From Eledone cirrhosa (lineage: Eukaryota), in assembly GCA_964016885.1 (NCBI GenBank), contig OZ024740.1, positions 67,394,001 to 67,458,000 on the forward strand: 64,000 nt of DNA. Direction: 5' to 3'. Shown piece after piece: positions 13,303 to 32,622 of this stretch (position 1 is its first letter; each line of letters opens with the position of its first letter). Below the pieces are notes generated by a model. That model had not been told where the DNA came from. It did not search any database and saw only the letters and a program-made list of their open reading frames with translations. A program made the translations under genes and the position numbers.

Positions 13303-13646
13303 TGAATGTATATATAATGTATTTTGCAATACACTTTATGCTTAATTAACACCATTTTGAAGACCGTATGCTATTGTTTTAGAGTAGTGACAGACTCACT
13401 TACTTTAATCTCAGCAATCAGGGGCAGATAAAGCCGACAAGGCCTTGTTTCTGCATTTGTTGATGCTTATCAAGGCCAACTACTCCCTCCCGTCCGCTGA
13501 GATCACAGATGTTATATTCTTATAGGATTCTAGTAAATAATCAGGAACTGATTATACAGAGCGGTTGCCATACGGTTGCATACGGTCTTCAAAATGCTTT
13601 TAATTAAGCATAAAGTGTATTGCAAAATACACTATATATACATTCA
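13303..13646 (-). mobile_element. Small retrozyme-like element with ~69-bp inverted ends in (TA)n
   Basis: Arms 13303-13371 and 13578-13646; homologous to 32261-32622; contains an HHR. Confidence 0.7.
13433..13476 (-). ncRNA. Minimal type I hammerhead ribozyme, U3-A8 variant
   Basis: GCC-TTGATAA-GCATcaacaaATGC-a-GAAA-CAAGGCCTTG-TC-GGC; palindromic stem III, GUC site, one extra A before GAAA. Confidence 0.72.
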
Positions 13647-13694
13647 TATATATATGGCTATTTCAGAGCTCCAATTCTCATTTATATATATATA

Positions 13695-14915
13695 AGAAAA
13701 CAAGGCGGCGGTCCCTTCTGGGAAATGGGCGTGCTCGGTGTGTAGGAAAGGCGTAGGTAGAAACTCCATTTTATGTCCTAAATGCAAAGTATGGGTGCAT
13801 AAAAGATGTAGTGGGATCACAGGTAAGCTAACTAAGAACATAGATTTTACATGTGGCCGGTGTTCTGGTGCAATAAGTAGCAGCAAGTGCCCACAAAATA
13901 CTAGCTCTTTCAATTGCGCAGAGGGTTCTATAGAAATAGTGGACAGCTTCCGTTACCTGGGAGATAAAATCAGCAGTGGGGGAGGGTGCTCTGAAAGTAC
14001 AGTAGCTAGAGTCAGAACTGGTTGGAAAAAGTTCAGAGAGCTTATACCACTATTAGCTGCTAAAGGGTTCTCCCTAAAAATGAAAAGCAGGTTGTACGAT
14101 GCCTGCATACGAACAGCAATGTTGCATGGCAGTGAGACCTGGGCATTTTGTGCAGAGGATATACGCAGACTAGAGAGGAACGAAACTTGCATGCTCCGCT
14201 GGATGTGTAACAGTAATATACGTGAACGGCAAAACATAAACGAACTAAGGAAAAAATTAGAGATAAGAGGGATCAGATGTTGTTTACTCGAGAGAAGGCT
14301 ACGTTGGTATGGACACGTGATGCGCATGAAAGTCGATAGCTGTATAACAAAGTGCAGGGCAATAAAGATAGACGGTAGCCACGGAATAGGCAGACCTAGC
14401 AAAACCTGGGACGAGCTGATAAACTCCGACCTCACACACTTACACCTCTCCAAGACAATGTCACTGGACCGAGACCTTTGGCGGTACTCAGTAACAGAGA
14501 AGACCCGCCTTACCTAAATATATAGTAAAACCTACTCCAGCCAGTTGGCATCTCTAACAAAATACACCCCGTCCCACCCCAACCACCCCCACCCCATCCA
14601 CACCACCCCGTTCTATGTAAAGTTATGTTGGTGCCGCGCCATCCAGGCCAAAACAAATGAGATCGTGTAGGTGTCACGACAAAAAAACACACAGTCCACG
14701 CTGTAATGTGGCCGTGTAGGCAACACGGTAAAAACGTCCCAGACCCACACTGTAAATGTGGTTGGTGTTAGGAAGGGCATCCAACTGTAGAAAACCTGCC
14801 AGACAGTCCTATGCGAGCAAGACAATCACTCTTGCTTCAAGTGGGACTACCCCCGTCCAAACCCATGCAAGCGTGGAACACGGACGTTAAACGTTGATGA
14901 TGATGATGATGATGA
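13695..14915 (+). mobile_element. 5'-truncated RTE-type LINE with Cys-rich PHD-like insert and (GAT)n tail; open frame to 14517
   Basis: CSVCRKGVGRNSILCPKCKVWVHKRCSG, FRYLGD, MLHGSETW, RLRWYGHVMRM, GRP.KTW; tail gatgatgat at ~14896-14914. Confidence 0.85.
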
Positions 14916-14934
14916 TATATATATACACACATAT

Positions 14935-15152
14935 GTGAATTTCGTATATCTAAAGATATACGGTATGCTTAATAAATAAACTGTTAGAGAGCCAGCTATG
15001 AATATTGAATGGCTAACGGCCAGCAACATCTGGTGGACCCCACCAGAGGCAGCAGGGATCAACTGTCAATGCGCATTTCGAGCTTCTGGACCTCATTAGG
15101 GCAGTGTTTCTCCTAGTGTCTGCTGGAATTTGGAACAGACGAAATGTCACTT
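14935..15152 (-). repeat. Dispersed repeat with decayed hammerhead at 15062-15105; its right end recurs inverted across (TA)n at ~15293-15324
   Basis: Minus strand ACTGCC-CTAATGA-ggtccagaagctc-GAAA-TGCGCA-TT-GACAGT (G5 mutated). Confidence 0.6.
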
Positions 15153-15436
15153 TATATATATATATATACATATATATATATATATATATATATATATATA
15201 TATATATATATATATATATATATATATATATATATATATATATATATATATATATATATAGAGAGAGAGAGAGAGAGAGAGAGAGCGATATATATAAAGT
15301 GACATTTCGTCTGTTCCAAATTCCGAACCATTGACCACTTTGCCGCACATTTCGAAGATTGTTTTTCGTTATTTCGTGGGTCGAAGTTCCGATTCTCGAT
15401 AATTTTATTTGTATATATATATATATATATATATTA

Positions 15437-30680: not shown

Positions 30681-31096
30681 TTCCTAAGCATAAAAACTAT
30701 AAGTTTTTAGCTTATTTAGTCTGAGCACCCAAAAAGTGTAAGCCTCTTTTATGAACTGGAGATGGTTTAAAGAAATGGAAACGGTACCGTTACGTTGCTC
30801 AGCATTTGTTGCTAAGAATAGCAGTGATATGATCAAACCATTTAAAAATATATAGCGGGGATAAAAGAATGTTTATTAATATGAACATTTCGTATATTCT
30901 TCAATATAAAACCCCGTTCACGTCTCAATCACGCTATGTGAGAGCATCACTACCATTTATATATAAATGTAAATTAAGTATATATATATATATGTGTGTA
31001 TATATATATGTATATATATATATATATATGTATATATATATATGTATATATATATATATATATGTATATATATATAAATATATATATATATATATA

Positions 31097-31251
31097 AAGA
31101 AAAAAAGATGAAATCGAAAATGCAACTGGAGTCTTTTTTTTTAAATAAGACTCCAGTTGCATTTTCGATTTCATCTTTTTTTCTTTATACTTTCACTCGT
31201 GTAGGACACCTCGGTTATTTTTCATTTTGTAAAAAAAACCTCACTTTCTAA
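31097..31251 (+). mobile_element. Terminal fragment of the 15.4-18.8 kb Penelope family with a short 5' fold-back, in (TA)n
   Basis: aagatgaaatcgaaaatgcaactggagtct / agactccagttgcattttcgatttcatctt hairpin; remainder is the reverse complement of 15437-15540. Confidence 0.8.
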
Positions 31252-31644
31252 TATATATATATATATATATATAAAAGTTTACATATATATATACATATAT
31301 ATACATATACGTGTTTTGCAACGGGTCACTTTGTGGCTCAATGAAAATTTAATAAATAAAAAAATCAGAGCTATATATCATAAAGCATGTCTATAGAATC
31401 ACAAGATAAAATATATACCATTTCCTCTCCCAATTAGCATAATTAACTATATAAAAAATCGAATAGACCAGGCTATAAGAATGAGGCTTCTATGAAGAAA
31501 TCTCCAACAAATAACCGAAACTAGCCCTTCGCGTCGGCCACAACGGAATATTTATCGAATATTTCGACAGCGTAATCGCCCAGATACAGTCAACTAAACA
31601 GAAATAGGTGTAAAGTAAACTAGAAGAAAATAGAATACATTTAA

Positions 31645-31735
31645 AAACCTCTACCATGGTTTCATCCGCATTTTGAGATTTCCAATAATTATGTAATAAT
31701 TATATAACTCGAGCACCCGATTCATCAGGAGATTT
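31645..31735 (-). ncRNA. Type I hammerhead ribozyme candidate, canonical core
   Basis: AAATCTC-CTGATGA-ATC...GAT-GAAA-CCATGG-TA-GAGGTTT: 7-bp stem I, palindromic stem III, GUA site. Confidence 0.7.
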
Positions 31736-32260
31736 GCTCTTATCTAGACACTAAATTTTCCAAAGTGATCACGCCAAGAGTTCATTCAAAATGGCTAAGA
31801 TTCGTGACTAGTCGCGGTCAGCTTTATGATATATATATATATATATATGTATATATATATATATATATGTATATATATATTTATATATATATATATATAT
31901 ATATATATATATATATATATATATATATATATATTTTTATATATATATATATACATATATATATATATATATATATATATATATATATATATATATATAT
32001 ATATATATATATATATATAAAGTATTTCCGTGGAAAAGGTAAAGGAAAGAAGAGTGCTCTATGTATAGTACAGAGCTAATATATATATATATATATATAT
32101 ATATATATATATATATATATATATATATATATATATACTCCATCCTACAAACTGTAGAGTGCTTATTATCCGATATCTGCATTGCTTTATTGTACTACAA
32201 TAAAACTCACCTCCTACATATATATATATATATATATATATATATATATATATATATATA

Positions 32261-32622
32261 TGAATGTATGTATAGTATATTTGGCAATATACCGTATGTT
32301 TAATTAAATACATTTAGAAGACCATACGCTATCGGTTTTAAAGTAGTGATTATGTCACTCACTTCTTTTCGGCGAAAGAATGGAGATAAGCTAACAGTCT
32401 GTTTCACGCTGGTTGGCAATCATCAGAACGACGCACCCCCTGCTTCCGTCGAAAATTAAAGAAGCTGGATTATTATAGAATTCCAGTAATAACCAGGAGC
32501 TGATTATACAGAGCTATTGCCGGTCCAGCAAAAATTAGGCATTAGGACTGGTGCTCTGAAATAGCGATGTATACATGAATGTATGTATAGTATATTTGGC
32601 AATATACCGCATGTTTAATTAA
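32261..32622 (-). mobile_element. ~315-bp retrozyme-like unit plus partial tandem repeat; HHR with canonical core at 32390-32429
   Basis: tgaatgtatgtatagtatatttggcaatatacc at 32261 and 32576; minus strand GTT-CTGATGA-tTGCcaaccaGCGt-GAAA-CAGACTG-TT-AGC; homologous to 13303-13646. Confidence 0.7.

Follow-up and report, generated by a model that had tools for sequence, protein, structure and literature searches.

Two copies of a short repeat

The DNA analysed here, hereafter the window, is a 64,000-nucleotide stretch of the Eledone cirrhosa genome (GenBank assembly GCA_964016885.1, contig OZ024740.1, positions 67,394,001 to 67,458,000 of the forward strand). It is microsatellite-rich eukaryotic DNA with remnants of LINEs (long interspersed nuclear elements) as well as of Penelope-like elements. 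Our subject is a short repeat present at two loci, copy 1 beginning at 13303 and copy 2 beginning at 32261, each with a hammerhead ribozyme motif (Table 1). An earlier note on this DNA had described the two loci as diverged homologues with a shared end and an internal ctgattatacagagc. Both features are present, and 13303-13575 and 32261-32575 are identical in 193 of 264 aligned columns (73%); the homology score of 159.5 compares with a best of -3 among 200 shuffles. A third copy was looked for within the 64-kb window and not found.

The layout of copy 2 is as had been described, with a period of 315 and one unit followed by a partial repeat (32261-32307 and 32576-32622 differ at 1 of 47 positions). 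For copy 1 the homology stands, but not the single unit of about 315 bp that had been placed at 13303-13646: the locus consists of a truncated sense arm, an inverted 3' end and a tail that runs to 13681. The unit is 315 bp long, has a GC content of 38% and is non-coding; its longest ATG frame has 35 codons, and it holds no reverse transcriptase (RT)/GIY-YIG open reading frame (ORF) of the kind found in autonomous Penelope-like elements. Copy 1 is adjoined on its right by a LINE-like fragment with a PHD-type finger (13696-14517), and just left of copy 2 an 80-bp non-repetitive island (32138-32217) separates two TA runs.

Hammerhead motifs and paired changes

The hammerhead motifs read as quoted in the earlier note, are both on the minus strand and occupy homologous positions, with 133 nt (copy 1) and 132 nt (copy 2) between the cleavage site and the element end. 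Positions 3 and 8 form a U3-A8 pair in copy 1 (13473/13468) and a C3-G8 pair in copy 2 (32426/32421). The motif of copy 1 has a 4-bp stem II with an extra, looped-out A before G12, a 12-nt palindromic stem III and a GUC triplet with a predicted cut after 13436. That of copy 2 has weakened stems I and II, with a U.U at the base of stem II, a C.U in stem I and two U.G wobbles in the window letters, a 9-nt near-palindromic stem III and a GUU triplet with a predicted cut after 32393. The core boxes N3-UGA-N-N8-A9 and GAAA, an NUH triplet and a Watson-Crick 3-8 pair are found in both copies, and each domain is closed by an outer stem of differing sequence, in which copy 1 forms 10 of 10 pairs and window copy 2 forms 9 of 10. 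Scanned with a strict type I descriptor, the window yields these two cores and no others (mean of 0.3 over 100 block shuffles); a descriptor demanding a palindromic stem III finds four (versus 0.07), and of 2000 shuffled 315-nt units none holds the strict motif. Folding z-scores of the ribozymes alone are unremarkable (-0.97 and +1.12), and whole units show no strand preference. We rejected the minimal Penelope hammerhead as a class for these motifs: an unpaired base after A9, a long helix II and little or no helix III are features of neither.

Public reads and contigs were compared with copy 2 as the sole reference, and the read evidence on the core therefore bears on the C3-G8 subfamily. The matched sets comprise 5515 contig pieces (X1) and 4717 restriction-site-associated DNA (RAD) reads (X7), mostly less than 95% alike, together with 18 pieces from organism B (X4) and 3 from organism C (X6), both with small word shares. 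Variant letters are those among the 40 variant rows listed of 158, and read-majority letters are unphased. Helices I-III form 12 of 12 pairs in copy 1, 10 of 12 in window copy 2 and 12 of 12 in copy 2 with read-majority letters. The claim that the stems change sequence while keeping their pairing holds only in part for window copy 2, given its U.U and C.U mismatches.

For the analysis of paired changes we used the 12 pairs that the core fixes: 3-8, three in stem III and four each in stems I and II. With window letters, 4 of the 12 are changed on both sides and copy 2 breaks 2, a pattern with a simulated chance of 2e-4 at the observed divergence of 26.5% with 60% transitions, and of 2e-3 at 40% divergence. 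Using read-majority letters, 5 of the 12 are double changes and none is broken (simulated chance <=1e-5). Double changes in the outer stem were not counted, given that its register between the copies is ambiguous, and RNAalifold pairs from the stem III region were excluded, given that MAFFT misaligned it. The ribozyme domain holds 9 of the 40 listed variant rows. Seven fall within listed pairs and all seven improve pairing, one turns GUU into GUC (335 of 608 X7 reads) and one lies in loop 1. Pair-improving letters are carried by 369 of 462 X7 reads at 32418, 241 of 462 at 32419, 276 of 347 at 32428 and 280 of 347 at 32430. Since reads of other copies for the most part mend every one of the seven weak or broken pairs we checked, there is support for selection on the hammerhead fold. 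The earlier note had proposed selection on ribozyme function; the double changes and the seven improved pairs bear out selection on the fold, and ribozyme activity stays a prediction. U10.1 and U17 persist in about half of the X7 reads, and these letters therefore look like subfamily states rather than private decay.

The 3-8 swap is a single event between two subfamilies. The two states, U3-A8 and C3-G8, are likely to denote two masters, one per subfamily, both still compatible with catalysis. No alternative letter at 32426 or 32421 appears among the listed rows, which suggests that C3-G8 dominates among copy-2-like reads. The arms of copy 1 differ at just 3 of 69 sites, and hence a private double hit at 3 and 8 in this copy is unlikely (about 1e-4 by estimate); U3-A8 was probably already in the subfamily master of copy 1. 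CpG decay was rejected as the source of the swap, since on the sense strand neither base is part of a CpG or of a context derived from one. Covariation of 3 and 8 is already published and is not new. The change from C3-G8 to U3-A8 is known in natural hammerheads, for which Perreault et al. 2011 (PMC3088659) state in vitro activity, about 1,300 U3-A8 motifs are reported in Schistosoma mansoni Penelope elements (PMC4209133), and the supplement of the latter paper lists UUGAUAA and UUGAAAA cores, the first of which is the core of copy 1. The core covariation is the same as in the hammerheads described in PMC3088659; what differs is that both states occur here within one homologous repeat family and in one window.

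Insertion anatomy and a likely driver

Both loci carry features of Penelope-type insertion: a partial tandem (pseudo-long terminal repeat, pseudo-LTR), an inverted 5'-truncated copy and an optional 35-nt tail at one end. There is a (TA)n target bias, with TA runs flanking both copies and occurring at loose ends in reads. This is the pattern described for Penelope-like elements in PMC8557442, which lists a partial tandem, an inverted truncated copy, a 30-40 bp tail and a microsatellite bias. Reads are joined to TA before 32570 (315 X7 reads, 31 X1 contigs) and before 32541 (329 X7 reads, 54 X1 contigs). A third TA-joined end lies inside the tail at 32552 (277 X7 reads) and could represent an additional priming site or a variant of a subfamily. 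In the Anolis element studied in vitro, the tail is reported to lie between two internal priming sites 3' of the ribozyme (PMC11167929). Strand inversions, at varied points, make up 8 of the 15 joints listed (18 in all). Among the pieces listed, the tail-to-end junction is bridged by one from X1 and one from X4, and the body-to-tail junction by diverged pieces (5 of 8 X1, 1 of 8 X4 and 1 of 3 X6); the short unit is therefore not unique to the copy 2 locus. This anatomy, which the earlier note had missed, points to the likely driver. A promoter of the short interspersed nuclear element type was also considered and found unsupported, there being no tRNA and no RNA polymerase III B box in the sequence.

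Both loci belong to one short non-coding family with a minus-strand type I hammerhead motif and Penelope-type ends, and we consider it likely that this family, with two or more subfamilies, is a non-autonomous retroelement copied by a Penelope-like RT/GIY-YIG protein. The window contains such machinery. The Penelope-like element at 15548-18719, with an ORF at 16724-17638, has 39 homologues; most of these carry RT domains and many carry GIY-YIG domains, and 38 of the 39 contain a CX2-5CXXC motif of the Neptune/Nematis-linker type. The element also has its own U3-A8 hammerhead motif at 18660-18692 (+), degenerate in the left arm. It shares no detectable sequence with the 315-bp family; hence the machinery is present in this element, which is not thereby shown to be the driver.

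A plausible route can be sketched from the anatomy. Tandem units would be transcribed from the minus strand, and two ribozymes would pair via their palindromic stems III and cut after GUC or GUU, giving 315-nt monomers that may be ligated to circles. A Penelope-like protein, probably of Neptune type, would nick (TA)n and prime reverse transcription internally, either at about 132 nt downstream from the cut or at a point a further 35 nt along, the additional stretch being the tail; judging from the sequence, a UA-like run in the template just past the element end could pair with the nicked target. Read-through past one unit would produce copy 2, and an early stop with a strand switch would produce copy 1.

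The same ends could also be read as debris. Many 5'-truncated end fragments showing this pattern of tail and inversion are reported to be left behind by Penelope-like elements (PMC8557442), and the two copies could be truncated or internally deleted pseudo-LTR pieces of an autonomous Penelope-like family, in which case the 315-bp unit would not itself be mobile. Copy 1 taken alone fits this, as does a read depth far higher at the element end than in the ribozyme region. However, copy 2 has just 315 bp between its two ends, with ATG frames of at most 35 codons, and diverged pieces bridge both the body-to-tail and the tail-to-end junctions. The 4-bp stem II and the lack of an unpaired base after A9 are likewise unlike the minimal Penelope motif as described in PMC4209133, and we regard this origin as unlikely.

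The 69-nt inverted ends of copy 1, which lie within TA runs, together with the lack of any Rfam match, recall a TA-flanked miniature inverted-repeat DNA transposon in which the hammerhead-like motif would be due to chance. This reading is largely refuted already and highly improbable: the repeats of copy 2 are direct, not inverted, the inverted arm of copy 1 is made asymmetric by the 35-nt tail, inversion points differ among reads, and none of the 2000 shuffled units contains the motif.

Resemblance to known retrozymes

The likely non-autonomous, Penelope-copied family would work much like a non-LTR retrozyme. The earlier note had claimed a second small retrozyme family; the short, low-GC, non-coding unit with a type I hammerhead is borne out, and membership among the retrozymes is probable only. 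Metazoan non-LTR retrozymes, as described by Cervera and de la Pena 2020 (PMC7229834) and Li et al. (bioRxiv 2026.07.22.740005), are likewise non-coding units of about 300 bp with low GC and a type I hammerhead, a dimer-type stem III and co-occurrence with Penelope-like elements, and in an axolotl family among them the base of helix II also has a U.U mismatch. Unlike these, the present family has been seen only in scattered copies, each of roughly one unit and with ends that are explicitly of Penelope type. The hammerheads in pseudo-LTRs of Penelope-like elements reported by Cervera and de la Pena 2014 (PMC4209133) share the type I topology, a palindromic helix III and a 4-bp proximal helix I. 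They differ in having a 7-8-bp helix II, where ours has 4 bp, and an unpaired base after A9, where ours has none; here, stem III is much longer (9-12 nt), stem I is long and extended, and there is no ORF. Endonuclease-bearing (EN+) Penelope-like elements (Neptune/Nematis, Naiad, Poseidon) and non-autonomous derivatives such as Chlamydomonas MRC1 are described with the same partial tandem, inverted 5'-truncated copy, optional 30-40 bp tail, (TA)n bias and ends set by internal priming 3' of the ribozyme (PMC8557442, PMC11167929); unlike the EN+ elements, this family has no coding capacity.

The link between retrozymes and Penelope-like elements is here seen directly in the insertion anatomy (tail, inversion and internal priming point) rather than by co-occurrence, and the family adds one more small element that bears a hammerhead and probably depends on Penelope. 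As a high-copy family with C3-G8 and U3-A8 subfamilies it is also a natural test set. It may already be catalogued in Repbase or Dfam; exact-pattern scans of metagenome, genome and viral contigs gave 0 loci.

Dimer folding and a predicted locking helix

All fold energies given here ignore magnesium and tertiary contacts. The minimum-energy fold of the copy 1 homodimer is a double hammerhead (-91.5 versus 2 x -40.9 kcal/mol), an energy that does not change when the core is kept open. In both monomers the dominant predicted fold is a different one, in which the stem I arm and bases 3-5 of the core are paired with the 5' half of stem III. This helix, which we term the locking helix, has pair probabilities of 0.93-1.0 in copy 1, where the active monomer fold lies 5.3 kcal/mol higher. 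When copy 2 is given majority letters with U10.1 and U17 kept, its core-open dimer lies 2.7 kcal/mol above the free dimer.

Several results weigh against a self-cleaving family copied by a Penelope-like protein. With the window letters of copy 2, the hammerhead (core-open) dimer lies 7.4 kcal/mol above the free dimer, and with majority letters the core-open dimer reaches -82.5, the free dimer -89.4 (a gap of 6.9) and two monomers -87.4 kcal/mol. Rfam, searched with the whole window and with each copy at E up to 10, gave no hammerhead match, the reach of its models to short-stem Penelope-type variants being unchecked; its matches in the window are microsatellite-driven miRNA noise only. Neither locus holds two complete ribozymes, and, although the reads show the tandem junction repeatedly, none of the listed pieces extends across the whole unit stretch or across two ribozymes. 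The only Penelope-like element compared with the 315-bp family (15548-18719) shows no similarity to it (best E 0.14). Comparable motifs are reported to be often poorly active, with 1 of 9 Xenopus dimers cutting (bioRxiv 2026.07.22.740005). The Anolis ribozyme is described as needing protein, and its cleavage as dispensable for insertion in vitro (PMC11167929).

Alternatively, the family could be a Penelope passenger whose hammerhead no longer cuts and whose stems now serve as a structure for protein binding or stabilisation. In both monomers the locked fold is the dominant one, and it is still present in the dimer of subfamily 2; Anolis ribozyme mutants are reported to be without effect on insertion (PMC11167929), and the GAAA box is altered in one loose end from organism C. 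Nevertheless, neither copy has lost any invariant core letter despite 27% divergence, positions 3 and 8 change only as a pair, the NUH triplet persists and GUC stands in about half of the reads, all of which make the loss of cutting quite improbable.

Between the two copies, position 3 changes jointly with 8, 15.4 and 16.4, and 2.1 does so with 1.1 and with the centre of the palindrome. Of all palindromes of equal length, 1 in 256 and 1 in 64 could lock with Watson-Crick pairs only, and 4 in 256 and 4 in 64 with G.U pairs; the figures for the two copies are not independent, the idea is post hoc and only two states are available. We tentatively suggest, as a model that is rather doubtful, that the 5' half of stem III on 2.1-3-4-5 acts as a safety catch that holds a lone ribozyme or circle off and coevolves with the core, subfamily 1 being freed by the pairing of two units and subfamily 2 by the Penelope protein. 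Fold-back template switching could yield the same complementarity without selection. A search of the literature on inactive monomer conformations gave no earlier account of such a helix by title or abstract opening, which is weak evidence of absence; a locking helix that changes with position 3 may be a new feature. Most animal retrozyme circles are described in PMC7229834 as predicted to have a free ribozyme, some mussel circles excepted, so that another block must exist, whereas the core of this family is predicted to be blocked by self-pairing. If true, the helix would be a self-pairing answer to the question, raised in that paper, of how animal retrozyme circles escape self-cutting, and the catch would amount to a compact dimer-dependent ribozyme switch.

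Table 1 Features of the two copies and of the Penelope-like element in the window
Feature	Position	Strand	Basis or remark
(TA)n target run left of copy 1	13257-13302	.	Sequence
Copy 1, 5'-truncated sense arm; 3' end at 13303 abuts (TA)n without tail	13303-13568	-	Alignment
3'-terminal 7-bp hairpin; candidate reverse-transcriptase recognition site	13317-13334	-	One G-C/A-U double change versus copy 2
Extended stem I (distal stem and outer stem of at least 10 pairs) around copy 1 ribozyme	13400-13506	-	Folding
Type I hammerhead motif, U3-A8 core 13473-13467	13432-13477	-	Descriptor scan, folding
Predicted locking helix, copy 1: 13477-13471 (stem I arm and U3-U4-G5) with 13447-13441 (stem III 5' part)	13441-13477	-	7 Watson-Crick pairs
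Inversion junction, short duplicated motif	13569-13577	.	Sequence
The element's last 69 nt, inverted; 3 differences versus left arm	13578-13646	+	Alignment
35-nt tail homologous to 32575-32541, then short TA run	13647-13681	+	Alignment; reads of other copies end at same point
5'-truncated RT/GIY-YIG Penelope-like element, long inverted repeats	15548-18719		Homologues
(TA)n target run left of copy 2	32218-32260	.	Sequence
Copy 2, complete 315-bp non-coding unit	32261-32575	-	Alignment
Type I hammerhead motif, C3-G8 core 32426-32420	32389-32430	-	Descriptor scan; read majorities repair it
Predicted locking helix, copy 2: 32427-32424 with 32401-32398	32398-32427	-	4 Watson-Crick pairs, probabilities 0.90-0.94
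Tail segment, the unit's first 35 nt	32541-32575	-	Alignment, reads
Partial upstream unit (last 47 nt), pseudo-LTR-type partial tandem	32576-32622	-	Alignment

Other elements in the window

Further TA-associated elements lie elsewhere in the window. The stretch 9580-11563 is a TA-flanked element of about three tandem 593-bp units (98% alike) with a 293-bp inverted arm, a Penelope-like layout. Descriptor scans and Rfam (9600-11550) found no hammerhead in it; at about 11390-11410 there is a UUGAUAA half core with a small hairpin and no GAAA box. To its left, a TA-flanked piece (9180-9563) includes a type I hammerhead motif at 9474-9516 (+), with CUGAAGA and a palindromic stem III; a TA-joined end is about 45 nt away from it. 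By eye, 57860-57921 resembles about 9340-9400, each ending in a TA run, and is likely to represent another small TA-targeting family. The insert at 58731-58855 is a near-perfect palindrome adjoining a TA run. Several related LINE copies occupy 34000-55000 at a spacing of 6-7 kb; at 47372-50986 (-) an intact LINE ORF of 1204 codons encodes endonuclease, RT and zf-RVT domains, with a 702-codon ORF upstream.

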